IMG/VR virus record: IMGVR_UViG_2534682338_000010
Span: 1 to 33,953 of that record
Origin: a virus
Taxonomy: Duplodnaviria; Heunggongvirae; Uroviricota; Caudoviricetes
Length of the DNA stretch: 33,953 nucleotides
Direction: 5' to 3' (one strand)
Numbering within the stretch: position 1 is the first letter of the stretch; the number at the start of each line of letters is the position of its first letter. The notes under the pieces were generated by a model. That model had not been told where the DNA came from. It worked only from the letters and a program-made list of their open reading frames with translations, and searched no databases. This document shows, piece after piece, positions 3,242 to 33,384 of the stretch. The position numbers were made by a program, and so were the translations under genes.

Positions 3242-4741
3242 GTGGAACTAATGCAAGATATTAAAATTCATTTTCAAGATTACAGTTTCGTTAAGGTTGA
3301 TTGCTCTCCTTCTATCGGAATGGAATTAAGAGATTATTTCTCGTTTGAGGTTGAAGGGGCTAGGTTTAGCCCCCGTTACAAGTATTCTGGCTGGGATGGA
3401 CGAATAAGACTGTTTACGCATGAAAACACCCTACCAATTGGACTATTAAAAACGTTGGGTGTCTTTGTTAAAAATATGGGGTATTCAGTCTGGATTGACC
3501 CTAGATTGCTTGAGAAGGAAGATGTAACCAAAGACGCGATTAATGAATGGATTGATTCCTTAGAAGTGTATTCCGGTTCCAATAAAATCAATCCTTACTG
3601 GTATCAAAGGGAGGCAGTCTTTCAGGGTATTCATAATCGCCGTAGAATGCTGGTTCTTCCTACCAGTGCGGGTAAGTCATTGATTGCTTGTATGCTGTCT
3701 CGTTGGTACTTAGAGAACTACACCGGAAAAGTTCTAATCATTGTCCCTACTACATCGCTGGTGGTTCAAATGAGGGATGATTTTGTCGATTATAGGCTAT
3801 TCCCTTATGAAGCAATTCATACAATGATGAGTGGTAGCGGGAAACATCCGGGAGACAGGTTAATCACGGTTAGTACCTGGCAATCAGCTTGCAAGATGCC
3901 TCCTGAATGGTTCCGACAATATGGAATGTTGATAGTTGATGAATCACATAAGGCTAGTGCCAAAAATATTACCAATATCATTAACGGAATGAATCATTGT
4001 CAATTTAAGATCGGCATGACTGGTTCCCCGAAAGAATCAAAGTGCCATTTAATGCAGTATGTCGGGCTTTTCGGTGATATTTCTAAGATCGTGAGTATTG
4101 ACCGCCTGATGGAAGAAGGGCAGGTGACAAAACTGAAAATTAACTGTCTTTTCCTTCGTTATACCGATGAGGAATGTAGCGCGGTTAAGGGGAGAGAATA
4201 TGCGGAAGAGATCAAGTATATTACGTCTAACCCACGACGAAATAAGTTTGCTTGTAATTTGGCGCTAAAACTCGCTAAGAAGGGCGAAAACGTATTCCTG
4301 ATGTTCCGCAATACTAAGCACGGAAAACTTATGTATGATGCGTTACAGAAGGTACACGACAAGGTTTATTATATTGACGGTGGAGTTAAGACAGAAGAAC
4401 GTGATGAATTTAAGAAATTAGCGGAAGGGGAAACAGGGATCATTTGCGTTGCATCCTATGGTGTGTTCTCTACTGGTGTTTCAATTAAGAACTTGCACCA
4501 TGTTATTTTCGGTCATCCAGTGAAGGAATCAACTATCGTTCGTCAGAGTATCGGTCGTGCATTGCGTAAACATGGTTCTAAGGATATTGCAACGGTCTGG
4601 GATCTTATAGATCATCTGTGTATATTCGGTCGTAACGGAAAAGTCAAGCATAAAAATTATGCGGTAAAACATGCACTTGAGAGAATACGCTATTATCTAA
4701 CCGACAAGTTCAGCTATGCAACTAAAACAATTGCTATATAA
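3242..4741 (+). CDS. SF2 DExH helicase, UvsW-like (branch-migration/recombination helicase family)
   Basis: Walker A LPTSAGKS, motif II LIVDESH, motif VI QSIGRALRKHG; 499 aa; overall resemblance to T4 UvsW as recalled from memory. Confidence 0.8.
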   Translation: MELMQDIKIHFQDYSFVKVDCSPSIGMELRDYFSFEVEGARFSPRYKYSGWDGRIRLFTHENTLPIGLLKTLGVFVKNMGYSVWIDPRLLEKEDVTKDAINEWIDSLEVYSGSNKINPYWYQREAVFQGIHNRRRMLVLPTSAGKSLIACMLSRWYLENYTGKVLIIVPTTSLVVQMRDDFVDYRLFPYEAIHTMMSGSGKHPGDRLITVSTWQSACKMPPEWFRQYGMLIVDESHKASAKNITNIINGMNHCQFKIGMTGSPKESKCHLMQYVGLFGDISKIVSIDRLMEEGQVTKLKINCLFLRYTDEECSAVKGREYAEEIKYITSNPRRNKFACNLALKLAKKGENVFLMFRNTKHGKLMYDALQKVHDKVYYIDGGVKTEERDEFKKLAEGETGIICVASYGVFSTGVSIKNLHHVIFGHPVKESTIVRQSIGRALRKHGSKDIATVWDLIDHLCIFGRNGKVKHKNYAVKHALERIRYYLTDKFSYATKTIAI

Positions 4742-21114: not shown

Positions 21115-21537
21115 TTAAAAACGCGCTAGATAAGAAAATTTAAGGCTAAGTGTCCCAACGATACCACCATCACTAGAATCATCGTCATAATCGGTATTAG
21201 AAGCTACTGGAGTGATATCTGAAATTGAGAAGCCCAAATCTTTAAAACGTGGGTTATCCGGCTGAATCTGGATTATCTGGCAAATACCCTCATGAATTTT
21301 CGTTTCATGAATCTGAGAATATAACTGCATTTCGATAACGCATTCAGCTTGCATTGCATTACCGCCACGGACCCTAGTGTAAGTCTCATTCATTCCGGTG
21401 ATCCAACAAACCACGTCATCACTAAAGCCTTGCTGAGTTTGTTCTACGTTTAAAGCCAGACCTAAATCTTGTTCGATAATATCCTGCAAGGCGCGTTTGA
21501 TTTTCAGTCTAGGCATATTATTAACGGTAGCGAGCAT
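21115..21537 (-). CDS. head-tail joining / tail completion protein
   Basis: ATG at 21537 preceded by AGGGGG with 6-nt spacing; overlaps the upstream gene end by 17 nt. Confidence 0.45.
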   Translation of the reverse strand: MLATVNNMPRLKIKRALQDIIEQDLGLALNVEQTQQGFSDDVVCWITGMNETYTRVRGGNAMQAECVIEMQLYSQIHETKIHEGICQIIQIQPDNPRFKDLGFSISDITPVASNTDYDDDSSDGGIVGTLSLKFSYLARF

Positions 21538-21811
21538 GTGTACCCCCTGCCAGAGTGATAAAGCAATCAGTTGTATTGTCACCATTGCGCTTAACGTATT
21601 GAACTTTGAAACGCTGATTTTCTACAGTGACAATATCACCCTGCTTTAAGTCTCCCTCACGACAGAATAGAAATTCTGTTTCTGTCATTACCCCTTGTTC
21701 GTCGGTAGTAGTAATTTCATGATAAGCACGAATTGATTTACCACCTTCCACCGAAAATACAGGAGCACTTCGGAACATTCTTGATAATTGTGATTCTGAT
21801 AATTTGAACAT
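21521..21811 (-). CDS. head completion / head-tail adaptor protein
   Basis: 96 aa; AAGGGGG SD 5 nt upstream of the ATG; first gene after the capsid terminator. Confidence 0.45.
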   Translation of the reverse strand: MFKLSESQLSRMFRSAPVFSVEGGKSIRAYHEITTTDEQGVMTETEFLFCREGDLKQGDIVTVENQRFKVQYVKRNGDNTTDCFITLAGGTHARYR

Positions 21812-26143: not shown

Positions 26144-28048
26144 TTAGAACGATGTTACCCAGCTACGGCCTCTATTTGGGCGTCTGGCGATGTTTTTACG
26201 TTGTGGTCGTGTGATTGGCTTATTTTCTTCGATTTGCTCGTCAGATTGCGATTTAGGAGCTTCTACGGGTTCTTCTGGTTCACGGTTCAAACTATCTTTG
26301 ATGGCTTCGAGTTTTTCCCATGACATTTTATTGAGTACATGGCGAGAAGCAGCATAGGAATAAGCCAGGCAGTCGAGAGCCTCGTTTCGTTGCTGACCAA
26401 CTTTTACCCAACGTGTGGTATTACCCTGCCGTTTCAACTGTTCAGAAAGCAATTGCTCGCAATAGTCATCAGGAACGTCACCAATCTGGAAGACAGTGTG
26501 AGGATCGCCATCTCTCAAGTTCCGGTTAATCATTTCACGGATCATCGTTTTAAGGTTGTTTACGCCCAGAATTTTAAGGGTAAAACCACCCGTTCTTGTG
26601 TCTTTTACCGGAAGGATTGGTGCATCAACATTGCTTGCGCCTTTAATGGCGGTTAGATTTTGCCACCGACTACAGAATCGGTAGATCACTTGCGTAGCTC
26701 GTCCGTTCGATGAGTCCACGAAAGCAGATAGCATCGGGATTCGTTCACCGGATCGGGTATAGAATTTCGCTTTCAGGAAGTTATAAAGCTGGTCATATGC
26801 TGGTGATTCGTGGCGTTCGCAGTTCACATCATAGAATGATCGGTGATCAACTACGCATAGACCTTTACGAGAAATACCCAGCAAGGTAGATTCCAGACGG
26901 TCTTTTTGCTGGTCAACTCCACCTACCAGAGCCAGTACATCATCAGGAATATTGTCTAGGCTAATATCAGTTTTCAGCGTTTCCAGTTCGTCGGCTGTGC
27001 GGTCTTCGTTAAGATCATCGAAGGTTTCACCGAGGACTGTATTGTAGAACGTTGCCAGGGACATATTCGCGTAGCTATCAGCAAAGTCCACCACACACGC
27101 ACGGATAGAACTAAACGGAGACATAAGGCGGTTAGCATGAAAACCGATTACTTCCGCATTTGGTTCGGTGGCGACCCATTCTCCCTTAGCAACAGCACGT
27201 AGGCGATCCCCTTCGGTCCAGTCGGTTTCACATTCAGGACAACGATAAACGGCTGTATCTGGGTTGGGTAATGATTTACCGTTAATCGTATGCCAATCGA
27301 AATGTACGTTACTCCATTCCATTACGTGCTTGTGTCCGCAATGCTGGCAAACGACATGATATTTTCTCTTATCCGAGAGTTCCCATTGTTGGTTAATCGC
27401 CCCATCACGAGCGGTTGGAGTGGAAGCAATTACGATCCTTGCATCTTCCCCGAAAGTGGTTGCGCGTTGTTCCGCTAGCTGGATCGGGTTCCCTTCGTCT
27501 GACTCATCAGCCGCATCAACTTCATCAAGAATAATCAAAGGGAGTGTTTTACCGCGAAGATGTGACGGACTATTCAACGACATGAAATACATAAACGATC
27601 CGTTACGAAGCTGAATAATCGATGAGTTGTTAACGGCATTGCGATCTGATTTGTCGGTGATCATCGCCTTTAATTCTGGCGTTGCCTCTAATACTGGCTT
27701 CACCTTACCAGCGATCCAAGAATTTAGTTCCCTAACGTTACTTTGCAACACCCCGATATTAGTAGGGTTACTCGCGATCCGATGGAAGATAATTCCGTTA
27801 AGAATCATGGTCTTACCCAACTGTGCCGAACATTTAAACACAATTTTTCTACGGTCTTCGGTGATCGCGTCCATCATTCCACGTTGGAAGGGATGCAATT
27901 TAATTAGAGATCCGGCTTTAACACCATCGGTAGCAACTACGTTAGCCTCTACCCACTCGCTAGGTTTCATTGCTTTAGGTGGGCGAATTGCAGCAGAGAT
28001 ATTTCTGAGAATCTTTTTTAATTTTGCCTTATTAGAAATCAGTTTCAT
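26144..28048 (-). CDS. terminase large subunit, lambda GpA-type
   Basis: 634 aa; Walker A KCSAQLGKT; acidic ILDEVDAADESDEG (Walker B-like); Cys/His cluster CQHCGHKH...CPECE as in GpA-family terminases. Confidence 0.85.
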   Translation of the reverse strand: MKLISNKAKLKKILRNISAAIRPPKAMKPSEWVEANVVATDGVKAGSLIKLHPFQRGMMDAITEDRRKIVFKCSAQLGKTMILNGIIFHRIASNPTNIGVLQSNVRELNSWIAGKVKPVLEATPELKAMITDKSDRNAVNNSSIIQLRNGSFMYFMSLNSPSHLRGKTLPLIILDEVDAADESDEGNPIQLAEQRATTFGEDARIVIASTPTARDGAINQQWELSDKRKYHVVCQHCGHKHVMEWSNVHFDWHTINGKSLPNPDTAVYRCPECETDWTEGDRLRAVAKGEWVATEPNAEVIGFHANRLMSPFSSIRACVVDFADSYANMSLATFYNTVLGETFDDLNEDRTADELETLKTDISLDNIPDDVLALVGGVDQQKDRLESTLLGISRKGLCVVDHRSFYDVNCERHESPAYDQLYNFLKAKFYTRSGERIPMLSAFVDSSNGRATQVIYRFCSRWQNLTAIKGASNVDAPILPVKDTRTGGFTLKILGVNNLKTMIREMINRNLRDGDPHTVFQIGDVPDDYCEQLLSEQLKRQGNTTRWVKVGQQRNEALDCLAYSYAASRHVLNKMSWEKLEAIKDSLNREPEEPVEAPKSQSDEQIEENKPITRPQRKNIARRPNRGRSWVTSF

Positions 28049-28135: not shown

Positions 28136-28741
28136 ATGCTAATTAATCAGCAACAAAGAGATGAATTAAAATTAGCCTTTTCTTGTTGTACCGATCATGA
28201 ATATCGTTTGCCAGTAAAACATAAGCACTTAAAGACTGATTACACAACATCCGGGTTTAGCCGTGAGGAAGCGAAAGAGATTTTAATAGAATTTTACCGT
28301 GATAATGGTTATACAGACGTTCACAACTTCTTTAAGAAACATAGAACATCACATACAGAGTTTCGGAGAGTCCGAGATTGGTTTGATTTTGATATCAAGC
28401 GTTATTATCGCATTGATGACGGTCCTATCTATCGGTTGCAGTGGAAGCCGATCCGAGAAGTGTTGAAACAGACAAGGGATAGTATGGCTGTCACAATGCC
28501 ACGTAACATAGCTTTTAAGAAAGGATATGGTGATACAAGGGAACTATTCGTTGAACTCGCTAACGTGAAGTACAGCCACTATTACAACGATCCTAAGTCC
28601 TTCTTTGAAGTGCTTCGCAAGGTTGATATTAGTCGGGGTACATATTATTCACGGTTGAAGAAGTACGGGATTAAGGCAGAGTTCTTTATGTCGGTTGACG
28701 ATGGAGAACTTTTTCCGATAAAATGTAAGTCCTCTAAATAA
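28136..28741 (+). CDS. hypothetical protein with C-terminal small DNA-binding (HTH-like) domain
   Basis: 201 aa; C-terminal segment ISRGTYYSRLKKYGIKAEF resembles the two small paralogs at 28777 and 32146. Confidence 0.6.
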   Translation: MLINQQQRDELKLAFSCCTDHEYRLPVKHKHLKTDYTTSGFSREEAKEILIEFYRDNGYTDVHNFFKKHRTSHTEFRRVRDWFDFDIKRYYRIDDGPIYRLQWKPIREVLKQTRDSMAVTMPRNIAFKKGYGDTRELFVELANVKYSHYYNDPKSFFEVLRKVDISRGTYYSRLKKYGIKAEFFMSVDDGELFPIKCKSSK

Positions 28742-28776
28742 AGGTGAACATTCACTTTAATTTGGAGAAAATGACT

Positions 28777-29004
28777 ATGACTACTAAAGCTACTCGCGGT
28801 CGTCCTGCCCGTTTTAACGCTGAACAGATGGCTGATATTGCCTACGCTTATTATACAGCGGATCGTGGTAAGGAAGCGAAAGAACAGATTCTTAGTGAAC
28901 ATGGGATTTCAATTGCCCAATTCTATAAGAATATGAAGAAGTTAGACATTAAATTCTATGTTCAGATCGGTGATGGTCAGATCGTAGAAGCAACAGGTTT
29001 TTGA
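28777..29004 (+). CDS. small DNA-binding protein (GRP/AT-hook-like N-terminus plus HTH-like core)
   Basis: MTTKATRGRPARFNAEQMADIAYAYY...; GGAG 9 nt upstream of this ATG; track ORF begins at an upstream GTG (28744). Confidence 0.55.
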   Translation: MTTKATRGRPARFNAEQMADIAYAYYTADRGKEAKEQILSEHGISIAQFYKNMKKLDIKFYVQIGDGQIVEATGF

Positions 29005-29019
29005 GTTTTGATTCTCTTT

Positions 29020-29044
29020 GCCACTCTTCGGAGTGGCTTTTTTG
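29020..29044 (+). terminator. rho-independent terminator
   Basis: stem GCCACTC / GAGTGGC with loop TTCG, followed by TTTTTTG. Confidence 0.7.
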
Positions 29045-29151
29045 TATCTGTAGGGTGTCCAAAACGCCATCGGCGGGTTGGTGGAAGATGGCGCGAAAAG
29101 TCGCGTGATGTAGGTATGAAAAAGCCACGCACTAGGCGAGGCTAAAAATTA

Positions 29152-29967
29152 TTACAGTCCGAAGACTTCCAGTGATCCAACATTCTGACGGAGACGTTCA
29201 GCCGCTTTATTTTGAATCAGAATAGTGTTATTTGGCTGCGGTAGTTTAAGAGTTGCTTTCTGTTCTTCTTCCAAAACGCCCAATTCAACCAGCACCGGAA
29301 GCACATCAACAGTAAACTCAAGTTGGTAGTGAGCATTCATGCGGCAGAAAGACAGAGAAGAGTCATTAGCAACATACCCACACGGCTTGTTATTTTCATC
29401 ATAGACGCGCTCAATGTATCCAGCAGTACGCAAGGCCGTCAGTGCTTCTTTAACCTTCGTAGCGCCCTTTTTAGCGCCTAACAGACGCGTCATTGAATGG
29501 CTATCTACAGACTTACGAACATGAAGTTCAATCAGCTTTTTGTTTTCGCGAGTTTTCTTTAATGCCAGTTCGATCCAGTCTGTTTCTTCAAAGTCTGCAT
29601 ACGGGTTAACAGCTAAACGTTCCTGACGCAGTTTTTCATTTTCTTCTTTCAGTCGTTTCCATTCCTGAATAACAACCATTCGACGCTTAACATCGTAACC
29701 AGTAACAAGAGTCAGCGTAAGTTCTTCGTCAAGGTGATATTCGGTTTGTTCACGTCCATATTGGTCAAAAAAGATGCGTCCAAATTTGGACTCATCTAAT
29801 TCAAGAGAAGTAAGCATAGTTTTAATATCACGTTTAACATGCTTATGTTCTTTTCCGGTAAATTCAGCGATCTGACGGGAAGACATGGTCAGCGGTTTGG
29901 TGTTATCAACAACCAGAGACACGGAAGCAGTTTTAACAGCAGTATTCATAGTAGTAACAGTATTCAT
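29152..29967 (-). CDS. Rha-family phage regulatory protein
   Basis: N-terminal LTMSSRQIAEFTGKEHKHVKRDIKTM matches the conserved Rha motif; likely start at the first ATG of an 18-bp tandem duplication. Confidence 0.7.
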   Translation of the reverse strand: MNTVTTMNTAVKTASVSLVVDNTKPLTMSSRQIAEFTGKEHKHVKRDIKTMLTSLELDESKFGRIFFDQYGREQTEYHLDEELTLTLVTGYDVKRRMVVIQEWKRLKEENEKLRQERLAVNPYADFEETDWIELALKKTRENKKLIELHVRKSVDSHSMTRLLGAKKGATKVKEALTALRTAGYIERVYDENNKPCGYVANDSSLSFCRMNAHYQLEFTVDVLPVLVELGVLEEEQKATLKLPQPNNTILIQNKAAERLRQNVGSLEVFGL

Positions 29968-29976
29968 AGTAGTAAT
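29941..29976. repeat. perfect-but-one 18-bp tandem duplication at the start of the Rha gene
   Basis: AGTATTCATAGTAGTAAC followed by AGTATTCATAGTAGTAAT; encodes MNTVTT-MNT on the minus strand. Confidence 0.8.
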
Positions 29977-30063
29977 TCCCCTTAAACGGTTTTGCGATAA
30001 TGATATTGGTCCTCCTAGTTCCGGCATCACCACCGGAACAATTTTATTTATAATAGAAATTTA

Positions 30064-30396: not shown

Positions 30397-30452
30397 GTTA
30401 CATCCTCTTTACAAATCTAGGTCAAATAGGTTCAAAGTTGTCAAGTGCGATA

Positions 30453-30481
30453 ATCATAAAAAAGTTTGAAGATATTGTCAA
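30453..30481 (-). promoter_or_regulatory. near-consensus sigma70 promoter (minus strand)
   Basis: minus-strand TTGACA (30481-30476), 17-nt spacer, TATGAT (30458-30453); a second TTGACA lies at 30444-30439. Confidence 0.55.
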
Positions 30482-30517
30482 ATACCCCTTGACAGGACGC
30501 CAAAGGGTTGACCTAAC

Positions 30518-30985: not shown

Positions 30986-31388
30986 AGTGGAAATCCTCTA
31001 AAAGAAAGTGAATCAAAGTAATTCTGATATTATTTATAAGAGAAAATTCTTGATGATTTTGGAAGGGATTGTTACTCACTTCGTTCGTTTACTAGAATCA
31101 GTTATCATCTGGTATTAAATCCCTTTCTAAGAAAATCCTTTCAAAAGTGATTCTCGATGCCACGCAGTGGCGTCGCAGACGTTTGGGAGTGAGCGAAGCG
31201 AGCGAGCAAACTAGTTAATTCCTTCTAAGATCATCTAGTTTAAATTAGTGTTACTAGAAGTAATTGGTTAGCGCTTCGCGCAGTCGGGCTACGCCCTCCT
31301 AATATCTTTTTGGTTATTTGTTGTTTTTGGTTTTACACATGAGCGTAGCGAATGTGTTATATAATATCTATGCACGCCCGATTCCCCG

Positions 31389-31630
31389 TTTTGCCCCTCA
31401 CTAAGTTAATGTTTTATAAAGAGTTTTTCTCACAAATCCTTTTCGGGGGCAAATTTCAGGGGCAAAAATTAGATTTTCAGGGGCAATTATTGGCATTTCA
31501 GGGGCAAAAATGAGGGGCAAAATCACTGTTTCCCAGAATTTCAGGGGCAAAAATAGTAGGTTTCAGGGGCAAAAATGGGATGTGGAATCTAGGGGATTTT
31601 GGTTCAGGGGCAAAATTCGGGGGCAATTTT
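31389..31630 (+). repeat. iteron-like array: 9 direct copies and 1 inverted copy of GGGGCAA(A/T)
   Basis: direct copies starting at 31445, 31459, 31480, 31501, 31514, 31544, 31566, 31607, 31619; inverted copy at 31389-31397; several have the extended form TTTCAGGGGCAAAAAT. Confidence 0.8.
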
Positions 31631-31667
31631 CATAGTGTAGGGCTAGTGTAGGTTTGAAAATCCTTTG

Positions 31668-31696
31668 TTGACACTGTGTAGGATCGGTGGTATACT
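31668..31696 (+). promoter_or_regulatory. near-consensus sigma70 promoter P1
   Basis: TTGACA (31668-31673), 17-nt spacer, TATACT (31691-31696). Confidence 0.55.
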
Positions 31697-31724
31697 TGAA
31701 AATTCGAGATAAATATTTTATAAT
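31696..31724 (+). promoter_or_regulatory. near-consensus sigma70 promoter P2 (tandem with P1)
   Basis: TTGAAA (31696-31701), 17-nt spacer, TATAAT (31719-31724). Confidence 0.55.
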
Positions 31725-32145
31725 ATTTGTATTGAAAGTGAAAATTTACCGATTTTCCTTCCTATTGTTATCACCGTGTTAAATTGTTATATGTCTGTGA
31801 AGATTTGGATCTGAGAGAAAATCTTGTAACAAATCTTTACAATTCATAGCTCAATTAATGCTCACCGCTTTAGCAAAAAGTGCTATGCCTTTTTCTAAAT
31901 TGATTGAATATACATCAATTTGGTTAAATCGTGTTCTTCGCTTTAGCAATTCGTGCTGTGGTTTAACACATTTAACACGTCTGATAACATCTGAATAACA
32001 TTTTAACATATCTCTGTTATAAATACATATATAAGAGATAAATGTGAGGGGTTGAAAAATAAAATACAATCCCCATATAAATAATAGTGAGCGGTTAACG
32101 CTCTTTTTTAAGAAATCATTAATCCACATTGTAGGAGGATTCGAG

Positions 32146-32328
32146 ATGGCACGACCTGTTAAGTTCACTCGCGAAATCATCTTAGAAATGGCTAAACGCT
32201 ACTTTGAGTTAACGCCGGGTGTGAGAATTGAAGAGTGGTTTAAAAATGAGGGCATCGATAAATCAACCTTTCATAAACTGCTAAAACGATATGACATTAA
32301 AGTGAAGATTGAAGCTACCGTTTGGTAA
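32146..32328 (+). CDS. small DNA-binding protein (paralog of the 28777 gene)
   Basis: 60 aa MARPVKFTREIILEMAKRYFELTPGV...; AGGAGGA SD 6 nt upstream. Confidence 0.65.
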   Translation: MARPVKFTREIILEMAKRYFELTPGVRIEEWFKNEGIDKSTFHKLLKRYDIKVKIEATVW

Positions 32329-32442: not shown

Positions 32443-33384
32443 ATGTTATTTTCCGCTAACTTTTTCACTAACGAAGTAACCAACGCTAAAGCAGTTATCA
32501 AATTTGGCACCGAAGCAAACAAGAAGATTCAGCCGAAAGTTGTTGCTCATGTTTCCTTTGCGCAGCAGAAATCCGCCTTCGCTGGCTTTAAAGCACATCG
32601 TGAAGCACTGATCGCGGCTGGCTTTGGTGTTGACGGTAAACTGCCTAACGGCATTCGTAAAGCAATCGACCGCGTTAAACCTGCTAAAGACGTTGCAGTA
32701 GACCACATCGTTACTTTTACCGTTAAGAACTCTTCTGAACTGTTCCACCTGGTTATTGCTGGTGATACTGCTATCGTTTCCGCTCCTAACATGGATTTTC
32801 AGGATACCGCTGATTGCCAGATCACCTTCGGTCGTCGTAAAGAAGTTACCGGAAAAGCTAAACTGAACTTCACTAAATCTGGCAATCCTTACTTTGCTGT
32901 TTTCTTTAACAGCCACGCTACCGAAAAAGAAGTTGTAGAACTGGTTGCTTATGAAGGTGAAGAGAAAGAACGTATTGAATCTTGCGAAGCATTTCTGGAA
33001 CTGGAAGCACAGGTGAATGCTGTTTCTCCGGTTGTTGAAGATCGCTTTGCTGCACTGGAAGCACAGATCGCAGAACTGAAAGCTGCACTGGAAGAAAAAG
33101 ACCAGATTATCGAAGCACAGAAAGCTGAGATTGAAGAACTGAAAGCTAAAGAAGTTGCTCCGGTAGCAGTAGTTGAAAACGCGGCTGATGAGGCCGCAAA
33201 TGATGAAGTAGAAGTGAAAATCGATGTGATGCGTGATCCGATGGCTGCACTGCAATTACTTCGTTCTTTTAAGGGCAAATCTCATTTTTCTAGTGATGTA
33301 GAAGATGAGGAAGAAGAACAGAAACGCAATGCTGCAATGCTTCATGATGAAATGTACGGTACTAACTTTTCTTACTGCCAATAA
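32443..33384 (+). CDS. abundant early-type protein with central coiled coil and acidic C-terminal region
   Basis: 313 aa; codon usage strongly skewed to high-expression codons (CTG, GAA, AAA, CGT, GGT); coiled-coil segment LEAQIAELKAALEEKDQIIEAQKAEIEELKAKE. Confidence 0.7.
   Translation: MLFSANFFTNEVTNAKAVIKFGTEANKKIQPKVVAHVSFAQQKSAFAGFKAHREALIAAGFGVDGKLPNGIRKAIDRVKPAKDVAVDHIVTFTVKNSSELFHLVIAGDTAIVSAPNMDFQDTADCQITFGRRKEVTGKAKLNFTKSGNPYFAVFFNSHATEKEVVELVAYEGEEKERIESCEAFLELEAQVNAVSPVVEDRFAALEAQIAELKAALEEKDQIIEAQKAEIEELKAKEVAPVAVVENAADEAANDEVEVKIDVMRDPMAALQLLRSFKGKSHFSSDVEDEEEEQKRNAAMLHDEMYGTNFSYCQ

Follow-up and report, generated by a model that had tools for sequence, protein, structure and literature searches.

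Strand-specific mini-hairpins beside a repeat array in an Escherichia coli prophage family: a conserved non-coding module that might assist a presumed replication origin

What is a compact, GC-rich set of inverted repeats doing in the AT-rich gap between two phage operons? This question is raised by one locus of IMG/VR virus record IMGVR_UViG_2534682338_000010, the whole of which (33,953 nt, hereafter the window) was analysed and represents a temperate siphovirus-like prophage with a GC content of 42%. The element in question (31151-31313) lies within a 1160-nt non-coding gap (30986-32145, 36% GC) between a leftward and a rightward operon, ~70 nt to the left of about 12 direct repeats of GGGGCAAAA, and RefSeq carries no annotation in this gap. 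An earlier, sequence-only reading of the window had singled out the GC-rich segment and suggested that it could be a structured small RNA, a packaging or recombination site, or a protein-recognition element. The general idea of a structured or recognised non-coding element is supported in the present study by stem covariation between module types, by conservation and by the single copy number. Herein, we report that the element is a conserved functional non-coding module, and we tentatively propose that it might well act at the DNA level, as a single-strand initiation (ssi)-like auxiliary element of a presumed iteron replication origin.

Anatomy and loop type of the element

In the plan of the element, two opposed clusters of small hairpins flank an AT- and CTAG-rich core and are succeeded by a TAATATCTTT tail, a T-rich stretch, a palindrome and the repeat array. 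On the left, hairpin L1 (GATGCCAC-GCA-GTGGCGTC, 31156-31174, + strand) contains the stem-loop GCCAC-GCA-GTGGC at 31159-31171, within 2-3 nt of the position previously given for it (an offset that also applies to the other features of the sequence-only reading), and closes with a C-GCA-G triloop of the GNA type. This hairpin has one base in common with hairpin L2 (CGTC-GCA-GACG, 31171-31181, + strand), which also carries a GNA triloop, and both are followed by GCGAAGC(G) at 31193-31200 (+ strand), an exact copy of the d(GCGAAGC) mini-hairpin motif and the 5' arm of the outer inverted pair. The core (31206-31265) includes the inner pair that had been reported (AAACTAG at 31208 and CTAGTTT at 31235) and a 10-nt unit, ATCATCTAGT, at 31230-31239. 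On the right, the GNA loops are found on the - strand, on which hairpin R1 (GCGC-TTC-GCGC, 31271-31281) reads GCGC-GAA-GCGC and includes GCGAAGC, and hairpin R2 (GGGC-TAC-GCCC, 31286-31296) has a GTA triloop. Hairpins L2, R1 and R2 had been overlooked by the sequence-only reading. The T-rich tract noticed by that reading is present from 31300, where the conserved tail TAATATCTTTTTGG leads into a stretch of 22% GC (31300-31334), a candidate easily melted segment; the T-run itself begins 9-12 nt past R2, behind a sequence-conserved TAATATC spacer. Palindrome 4 (ACACAT-GAGCGTAGCGA-ATGTGT, 31335-31357, + strand) has a GCGTAGC mini-hairpin in its loop and is followed by TATATAAT. The contrast in composition that had drawn attention to the segment is as claimed (64% GC at 31156-31205, 27% in the core, 69% at 31266-31300 and 22% at 31301-31340). 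The outer pair, GCGAAGCG (31193-31200) and CGCTTCGC (31272-31279), is also present, but its arms are separated by 71 nt (79 nt from start to start) and not by about 85.

The 8-bp outer inverted repeat alone is within chance, a repeat at least as long being found in 95 of 1000 dinucleotide shuffles of the span, and the fold energy is moderately unusual (z = -2.4 for the + strand and -1.5 for the - strand). The element is considered to be beyond chance because it is conserved in relatives, because analogues in other relatives keep hairpins and because the type of its loops is highly non-random. Regarding the loops, 19 GC-rich perfect triloop hairpins are present in the 34-kb window, 4 of them inside the 162-nt element, and all 4 carry C-GNA-G loops, compared with 1 of the 15 in the other 33.8 kb (Fisher p = 0.0013); this single outside hairpin belongs to a terminator with an alternative tetraloop reading. 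The loops are also arranged by strand, both left-hand GNA hairpins being on the + strand and both right-hand ones on the - strand, and the mini-hairpin heptamers GCGAAGC (31193) and GCGTAGC (31343) lie on the + strand. The clear terminators of this phage (29021-29045, 33391-33408 and 33494-33512) have 7-bp stems, cUUCGg on the transcribed strand and an adjacent T-run. The UUCG tetraloop is the optimum of stability for RNA, and the phage therefore uses RNA-type loops for its RNA hairpins and DNA-type loops in the element. GCGNAGC and GCGNNAGC have been described as extraordinarily stable DNA mini-hairpins that are rarer than expected in natural sequences, and GNA/GNNA mini-hairpins as a DNA-specific stability motif occurring at the G4 complementary-strand origin, at RSF1010 ssiA and at the N4 hairpin promoters (review PMC13037366).

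Conservation and pairing among related prophages

About 70 loci were gathered from IMG/VR, metagenomes, NCBI assemblies and RefSeq via the neighbouring 155-aa and 60-aa proteins and DNA patterns, and the element is present at 89-99% identity in ~30 related loci. It was found at 35 places, distributed over 34 of the 5426 complete E. coli genomes searched (median, one per genome), and all copies examined sit in this prophage context. A dispersed repeat or miniature inverted-repeat transposable element (REP, ERIC and similar) is ruled out by this single copy number and by the restriction to one prophage family. A gapped pattern scan of 185,579 species genomes returned as its sole match a Chitinophagaceae repeat beside a tyrosine recombinase gene. 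This dispersed, GC-rich repeat of ~150 nt, observed beside tyrosine recombinase genes in Chitinophaga and Agriterribacter (L055-L061), matches GTGAGCGAAGCGA...GCGCTTCGCGCA and has GCGAAGC on its left and GCTTCGC on its right, ~80 nt apart, in the arrangement seen in the element; the match is probably a coincidence or a convergence on mini-hairpin motifs.

Within the module type of the window, termed type A, the element is almost unchanged, and the variation consists of one G/A substitution, 1, 2 or 3 units of ATCATCTAGT, a 7-nt deletion in the T-tract and alternative R2 loops (TAC, AAA or TAAA). This conservation is no higher than that of the neighbouring 313-aa gene, and covariation within a type is impossible because the element is nearly invariant there. 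Between types, the module is exchanged as a block. A mosaic breakpoint lies at 31150/31151, with homology lost exactly at 31150 and regained near 32076-32097 in 11 IMG/VR relatives, and it adjoins a conserved left flank (AAATCCCTTTCTAAGAAAATCCTTTCAAAAGTGA, 31117-31150) that is common to types A, B, C and E. Other relatives carry analogue modules of different sequence and of the same plan at the same slot. In type B (e.g. L003), the left side consists of ACGCC-GTA-GGCGT and then GTGAGCGAAGCGA, a motif in common with type A, followed by a different core lacking a CTAG box; the right side consists of GCGC-TTC-GCGC and ACGGC-TAC-GCCGT, followed by TATTCTTTTTG and GTGTAGG repeats. Type E (E. coli STEC1575) has CCGCG-CTCG-CGCGG, a longer core, GCGC-TAAA-GCGC, GGGC-TAAA-GCCC and then TCCTAATATCTTT, and its outer stem is built from an inverted duplicate of the R2 motif. 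The distant, higher-GC locus L103 has on the + strand four hairpins whose loops are GAA or GTA, then GCGC-TGC-GCGC, GCC-TAC-GGC and GTAATTCTTTTTG, and after the tail a palindrome, GGTAAC...GTTACC, the loop of which retains GAGCGAAGCG. Common to all module types, including L103, is the tail motif behind the last GC-rich hairpin, (T)AAT(A)T(T)CTTT(T/G)T.

The sequence-only reading had proposed to examine whether the pairing is kept in relatives, and the outcome differs between its parts: the pairing of the local hairpins is kept, whereas the long outer pairing is not. L1, R2 and palindrome 4 pair perfectly or near-perfectly, with unrelated stems, in types A, B, E, C and L103 (the pair tables across types were made by hand, and the MAFFT alignment of the right arm misplaced type B). 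The L1 slot is occupied by ACGCC-GTA-GGCGT in type B, CCGCG-CTCG-CGCGG in type E and GCGCCC-CGCA-GGGCGC in type C, all of which pair. Compensatory stems in R2 are ACGGC/GCCGT in type B, GCC/GGC in L103 and TGGC/GCCA in the upstream second copy of L077 and L079, amounting to double compensatory changes (GGGC/GCCC to TGGC/GCCA) and to flips from G-C to C-G in type B and L103. For palindrome 4, the stem is GGTAAC/GTTACC in L103 and TAAGGGG/CCCCTTA in type E. In contrast, the long-range helix GCGAAGCG/CGCTTCGC was rejected as a conserved pairing: seven type-B loci carry GCGCTACGCGC, in which a T-to-A change opposes A to A at the centre of the outer helix but leaves the local GCGC-TAC-GCGC hairpin intact, and in type E the 5' partner is missing altogether. 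The inner pair AAACTAG/CTAGTTT belongs to a set of short CTAG palindromes, which relatives carry again in the operator-like region on the left. For the inner stem, covariation between types A and B at the level of single positions was also rejected, because according to our own reading of the folds the two helices lie in different registers, with only the innermost 4 pairs in common. A cruder arm-to-arm alignment gave no strong G-T bias toward either strand.

The loop rule also extends beyond the window. The strand pattern is + + | - - in types A and B and + + + + | - - | + in L103, and the independent triloops of the relatives are of the GNA type (e.g. ACGCC-GTA-GGCGT, GCAACC-GAA-GGTTGC, ATCCC-GAA-GGGAT and four more in L103), with the exception of GGGC-AAA-GCCC and GACGCTC-CCT-GAGCGTC. 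Where these loops vary, the middle base alone is affected: R1 is TTC, TAC or TGC, which corresponds to GAA, GTA or GCA on the - strand, and GCAACC-GAA-GGTTGC becomes GCAACC-GCA-GGTTGC in L010. The R1 loop of type E is TAAA.

The same region might instead function as RNA. In this case, a rightward, + strand transcript would contain a structured RNA or end in it (R2 plus a U-rich tail), acting either as a terminator (weak or bidirectional) or insulator that separates the control region of the leftward antirepressor operon from the array, or as a small regulatory or primer RNA similar to lambda oop. Several results are consistent with these roles, including the fold of the + strand RNA relative to shuffles (z = -2.4 in type A and -3.1 in type E), the well-defined long hairpin of the type B + strand (z = -4.0; the minimum free energy structure accounts for 11% of the ensemble), and a + strand that in types A, B and E folds ~10 kcal/mol better than the - strand and contains more G-U pairs (4-9 compared with 1-6). 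The + strand structure also accommodates three changes seen within types (GGCGT to GGTGT, GATGG to GGTGG and, in L014, a bulged C that is lost), every type has a T-rich tail behind its last hairpin, types C and D have a single 6-bp GC hairpin followed by ATAATATTCTTTTCTTTT, and an extended -10 promoter on the + strand (TTTATA-16-TATTAT) lies upstream in relatives. However, this upstream promoter is deleted in the window itself, and the only promoter candidate by the element (TTGTTA-18-TAGAAT) has a spacer of 18, 14 or 9 nt across relatives. The better-folding strand is not conserved either, since the - strand of L103 folds better by 7 kcal/mol, and the outer helix is lost in the 7 type-B loci in which the local R1 hairpin stays. 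Moreover, GNA hairpins on opposite strands on the two sides are not explained by a single transcript, and the genuine terminators of the phage carry UUCG tetraloops. Rfam 15 gave no match at the gathering threshold in the window or in 5 relatives, and a permissive search of the gap gave none in the element up to E = 10, with three chance-level matches (E > 1) elsewhere; a terminator scan of 31100-31400 called none on either strand. Taken together, the lack of an Rfam family, a conserved promoter and a canonical terminator, the DNA-type loops and the broken outer pairing do not support the structured small RNA suggested by the sequence-only reading. A role at the RNA level, in any of these forms, is considered unlikely, and it is kept at a low probability because the type B fold, the compatible changes and the T-rich tail remain in its favour.

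For the CTAG-rich core, the protein-recognition element put forward by the sequence-only reading is plausible, and recognition by a protein could be the main function or an additional one. As an account of the whole element, double-stranded binding of a phage regulator to the CTAG core and short palindromes as operator-like sites is doubtful. According to this account, the core palindromes AACTAGTT, the CATCTAGT repeats and CTTCTAAG/CTAGAAG would be bound by the same regulator as the boxes on the left (AAAGTGAT, TCTAGAATCA and GTAACTAGT), the inverted repeats would reflect inverted binding sites, and the GC hairpins would be boundary or punctuation sequences. In agreement with such binding, boxes of 8-10 nt (CATCTAGT and AACTAGTT) are found in the core and, in relatives, between the element and a leftward promoter (TTGCCA-17-TATTAT) located to its left, the core of type E contains a full duplicate of the left box region, and the 10-nt unit, present in 1-3 copies, adds one helical turn each. 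CTAG occurs 3 times in the 60-nt core compared with 1.65 times per kb window-wide (a roughly tenfold enrichment), and the region evolves through duplication and deletion of boxes, as in the loss of ~180 nt from the window between AAAG(T/G)GATTG boxes. Nevertheless, operator-like binding leaves unexplained the covariation of the L1, R2 and palindrome 4 stems and the strand-specific GNA rule, and the core of type B, which has a different sequence and no CTAG box, is still accompanied by hairpin clusters. In addition, no regulator was identified for these sites.

The ~180 nt in question are present in most relatives and absent from the window and from L064 (GCA_000190855.1), at 31052-31063. On this segment, the CAGTC-GGGC-loop-GCCC-TCCT hairpin is present a second time, together with the leftward promoter predicted at TTGCCA-17-TATTAT and the GAA-triloop hairpins GCAACC-GAA-GGTTGC and ATCCC-GAA-GGGAT. 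The deletion is bounded by two AAAG(T/G)GATTG boxes, indicating recombination between them, and this prophage may therefore represent a variant with a regulatory deletion.

The repeat array and the presumed origin

The element is linked to its right-hand neighbours. The iteron-like array (31383-31628) comprises ~12 repeats of TTTCAGGGGCAAAAAT, mostly at a spacing of 21-22 nt, one of which is an inverted copy (31383-31398) to the left of an AT-rich stretch (31400-31440). An orphan 313-aa protein (32443-33384, + strand), presumed to be a repeat-binding, initiator-like protein, swaps its type with the array, and a change of module is in every case also a change of repeat array and of the protein occupying the 313-aa slot. 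The arrays of the other module types are unrelated (GTGTAGG; GTACATCC plus TAATACCGGGGGATT; ACGGGGA; GTGGAATCTTGGGGATTT; TTCAAATGCTACTTT), and the N-terminal parts of the proteins in this slot are likewise unrelated between types, with a central coiled coil, an acidic linker and the C-terminal motif M.LHD..Y.TN.S in common. Some 2,200 assembly blocks contain the 313-aa protein or analogues of it. An exhaustive search of 1.84 billion proteins gave ~12 representatives of the 313-aa protein, a word-based homologue search returned near-identical copies only, and a PDB sequence search gave chance-level matches only (E >= 0.18). The possibility that this protein is a RepB'-like primase was rejected, as the N-terminal domains of the different types have no common motif; no conserved catalytic acidic motif is found between types.

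From these observations, we infer that the repeat array may serve as an origin at which the hairpins would fold in vivo and direct priming, and we tentatively propose the following sequence of events. First, the 313-aa protein would bind the repeats, and the AT-rich DNA would melt. Second, each exposed strand would fold its own hairpin cluster. Third, the hairpins might exclude SSB and mark the start for a host primase or primosome (of the DnaG or PriA type) or for a helicase. With this layout of strands, priming in the core would result in outward synthesis in both directions, and the net effect would be akin to that of the ssi signals located beside plasmid and phage origins.

Several results weigh against this proposal of an ssi-like element. 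Types C and D have no large element, only one hairpin (GCGCCC-CGCA-GGGCGC) and the tail, and the family can therefore do without the element; GNA loops are absent from type E. The CTAG boxes common to the core and to the leftward operator-like region fit protein binding equally well, and types A, B and E fold better as + strand RNA by the ~10 kcal/mol given above. A standard DNA energy model shows no strand preference for the local hairpins, because this model contains no GNA bonus. A single DnaA-box-like sequence, TTTTACACA, is a relaxed box found in type A only. Searches of the open reading frames (ORFs) of the window against Pfam, PHROGs and NCBIfam revealed no primase or replicative helicase, the sole helicase being UvsW-like, and no family for the 313-aa protein; a single-sequence AlphaFold model of the latter was unusable (predicted local distance difference test score of 46) and showed no recognisable fold. 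Furthermore, at the IncQ plasmid origin, discussed below, the GNA hairpins face each other (- strand on the left, + strand on the right), whereas those of the phage point outward.

In a more speculative form of the ssi-like proposal, to which we attach a lower confidence, this prophage family might mark the start of replication by arrays of strand-specific GNA mini-hairpins around a meltable core and might recruit the priming or helicase-loading machinery of the host without a phage primase. This arrangement would be an outward-facing phage counterpart of ssi signals, combined in one cassette with iterons and with orphan modular repeat-binding proteins consisting of an N-terminal domain that varies, a coiled coil and a C-terminal docking peptide that is conserved. 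If the ssi-like reading is right, this prophage family would be a compact natural case in which DNA mini-hairpins of the d(GCGAAGC) type provide strand-specific signals for the origin of a temperate phage with double-stranded DNA; the cases documented so far come mainly from single-stranded phages, IncQ plasmids and N4 promoters. It would then be possible to assign functions to an orphan family of proteins and to 1.1 kb of unannotated control region present in ~1% of E. coli genomes, and the rule of a GC stem, a C-GNA-G triloop and a strand switch across an AT-rich core could be used to find priming sites elsewhere. As a terminator or an operator cluster, by contrast, the element would be ordinary phage regulatory DNA.

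To the right of the array, two near-consensus sigma-70 promoters face rightward at 31668-31724 (TTGACA-17-TATACT with TG, and TTGAAA-17-TATAAT). Three GTGTAGG boxes, the repeat unit of type B, flank the strong promoter or lie inside it (31633-31690), one of them between the -35 and -10 boxes, which suggests a common operator or cross-talk between module types in a type-A phage. Past the promoters, ~400 nt contain no ORF, and a good terminator (32089-32103) lies just ahead of the 60-aa helix-turn-helix (HTH) gene. The outline of this stretch (31668-32145) is kept in the different module types, and the stretch could correspond to a long leader or to a non-coding RNA in its own right.

The location of the element within the prophage bears on the two kinds of DNA site named by the sequence-only reading. 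The host is E. coli: a 1.3-kb region around the element was matched in 57 of the 5426 complete genomes, all chromosomal. The prophage is inserted in ycdX, and in strain ES2 its two ends are the two halves of this gene, with a fragment lacking the N-terminus to the left of the gene for the large serine recombinase (1279-2973) and a fragment lacking the C-terminus ~3.4 kb to the right of the element. The phage attachment site is therefore split between the ends, and the element, intact ~3.4 kb inside the right end, is not attP. The element type also differs among prophages that have the ycdX site in common. The proposal of a recombination site for this enzyme, favoured by the imperfect inverted repeats alone, is thus refuted with respect to attP, and any other role as a target of the recombinase is extremely improbable.

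A packaging site, in which the element would be the cos or pac cleavage region, the repeats would be small-terminase sites and the 60-aa HTH and 313-aa proteins would provide specificity, is also improbable, to a lesser degree. The large terminase (TerL, 26144-28048, - strand) is of the lambda gpA type, and no Nu1-like small terminase is found upstream of it, a divergent gene beginning 87 nt away instead, which is the reason for keeping this option as a low possibility. The 313-aa protein is laid out like a small terminase, with a DNA-binding N-terminus that varies, a coiled coil and a C-terminal tail that is conserved, and the small HTH proteins start with RGRP..F, as in terminase and transposase HTH domains, although only a weak match to PF01527 was obtained. 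On the other hand, the element is 3.1 kb from TerL, with the regulatory operon in between. The TerL gene is mosaic across the family, its DNA identity to the window ranging from ~95% down to ~65% or being undetectable, and it varies independently of the element and repeat type, while the GC-rich sequences differ among phages with the same TerL. Types C and D do without the element, and the ends of metagenome contigs near the element coincide with mosaic or repeat junctions and not with a fixed site. To our knowledge, ~12 repeats at a spacing of 21-22 nt are unlike the known cosB and pac regions.

Elsewhere in the window, ORFs encode a lambda-type portal, an HK97-type capsid protein fused to a protease, J-like tail-tip and fibre proteins and a UvsW-like helicase (3242-4741). 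None of the ORFs yielded an RNA polymerase domain, the large ORFs being those of the tail-tip and fibre proteins. The leftward operon encodes a 155-aa acidic protein, a 110-aa protein and a Rha/antirepressor-like protein (29152-30033), and the rightward operon encodes the 60-aa HTH protein and the 313-aa protein. A search for uptake sequences found none. No DNA-level match to the window was obtained in INPHARED in near or distant mode; the nearest TerL in known phages is that of DCP80 (43% identity), the neighbourhood of which is uninformative, and a literature search for ycdX prophages found nothing relevant.

Several further observations were made in the window. Between the 110-aa and 155-aa genes (30397-30517), inverted TTGTCAA/TTGACA motifs (TTGTCAAGTG, ATTGTCAAATACCCCTTGACAGGACG...GGGTTGACC) resemble an operator or promoter region of their own within the leftward operon. 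The small HTH proteins form a paralogous family (32146-32328, 28771-29004 and 28136-28741 in the window; 2256-2471 in L103) characterised by (R)GRP..F at the N-terminus and ..DG.I.E at the C-terminus and assigned through a weak HTH_Tnp_1 match only; one member lies ahead of the 313-aa gene and another is divergent from TerL. A GC-rich non-coding stretch between convergent genes (29005-29151) extends past the canonical UUCG terminator at 29021-29045, and its part 29048-29143, replaced in many relatives, is another mosaic joint and may be a candidate cos region. ARAGORN called a 91-nt tRNA-Glu(TTC) on the + strand at 21260-21350, within - strand structural genes and overlapping ORF 21115-21585; given its unusual length, it may be a false positive or an atypical tRNA.

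Comparison with known systems

Among transcriptional signals, Rho-independent terminators and lambda oop are similar to the element in having one or more GC-rich hairpins followed by a T-rich stretch in non-coding DNA beside a presumed origin. However, the triloop stems of the element are 4-5 bp long and its T-run is 9-12 nt off, compared with 0-2 nt as the criterion for a terminator, and, unlike small phage RNAs such as lambda oop, the element has no conserved promoter and no Rfam match. It also differs from a lambda-type cos in that it is not adjacent to the terminase genes and its types vary independently of TerL. The early promoters of N4 are DNA hairpins with a 5-7-bp stem and a 3-nt purine-rich loop (GGA or GAA) that serve as single-stranded recognition signals (PMC13037366). 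The hairpins of the phage are similar in size, but the N4 promoters need the N4 virion RNA polymerase, and the phage has no RNA polymerase gene.

Among replication origins, the lambda ori resembles the phage locus in its initiator-binding direct repeats beside AT-rich DNA and a palindrome (iterons annotated in NC_001416; palindrome TCAGAG...CTCTGA), and in both the specificity module of repeats and initiator (a presumed initiator in the present phage) is exchanged between related phages. Nevertheless, the lambda ori lies inside gene O and has 4 iterons, whereas the phage repeats are intergenic, number ~12 and are accompanied by elaborate hairpin clusters; lambda was rejected as a structural analogue for the hairpins because it contains no GNA mini-hairpins. 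Another comparison is with the complementary-strand origins of the G4 type, with which the G-sites of plasmids such as R1 are grouped. At the DnaG-dependent G4-type origin, hairpins with GCGNAGC or GCGNNAGC are thought to exclude SSB and to mark the start for primase (PMC13037366). The phage element has such mini-hairpin motifs in its hairpins, and, as the G4 type uses host enzymes only, this mechanism would fit a phage with no primase of its own. The CTG start triplet expected 3' of the hairpin on the template strand in the G4 type is present on the - strand between R2 and R1 in types A and E (GCCCGACTGCGC) and absent in type B and L103, and, unlike this phage, the G4 origin acts on a permanently single-stranded genome.

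The closest analogue of the element is the ssiA/ssiB hairpin pair beside the iterons of the IncQ oriV (RSF1010/R1162). In RSF1010, RepC binds the iterons and the RepA helicase unwinds the DNA, exposing the ssi hairpins for the RepB' primase, and the ssi signals are two inverted hairpins of 40 nt on complementary strands (PMC8567376). An IncQ1 oriV (L117) was retrieved using the ssiA sequence and read against the element. Its order is iterons, a GC-rich and then an AT-rich stretch, ssiB with CCGC-TGC-GCGG (GNA on the - strand), GCGGGC-AAA-GCCCGC and GCCGC-TTTA-GCGGC, followed by ssiA with ACCC-GAA-GGGT (GNA on the + strand) and GCCC-CGCA-GGGC. In this reading, no alignable sequence was found between the element and the 40-nt ssiA/ssiB consensus, the loop types alone being common. 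The phage has clusters of 2-4 tiny hairpins, compared with one 40-nt signal per strand in IncQ, and, unlike IncQ, its window contains no RepB'-like primase or RepA-like helicase and represents a prophage and not a plasmid. The array of ~12 repeats, ~70 nt to the right of the element with AT-rich DNA in between, would be the counterpart of the IncQ iterons if it serves as an origin. Both loci combine direct repeats and an AT-rich stretch with two GC-rich hairpin signals on complementary strands, and the IncQ hairpins have the C-GAA-G and C-GCA-G caps, together with the accompanying AAA, TTTA and CGCA loops, that are observed in the phage element and its variants.

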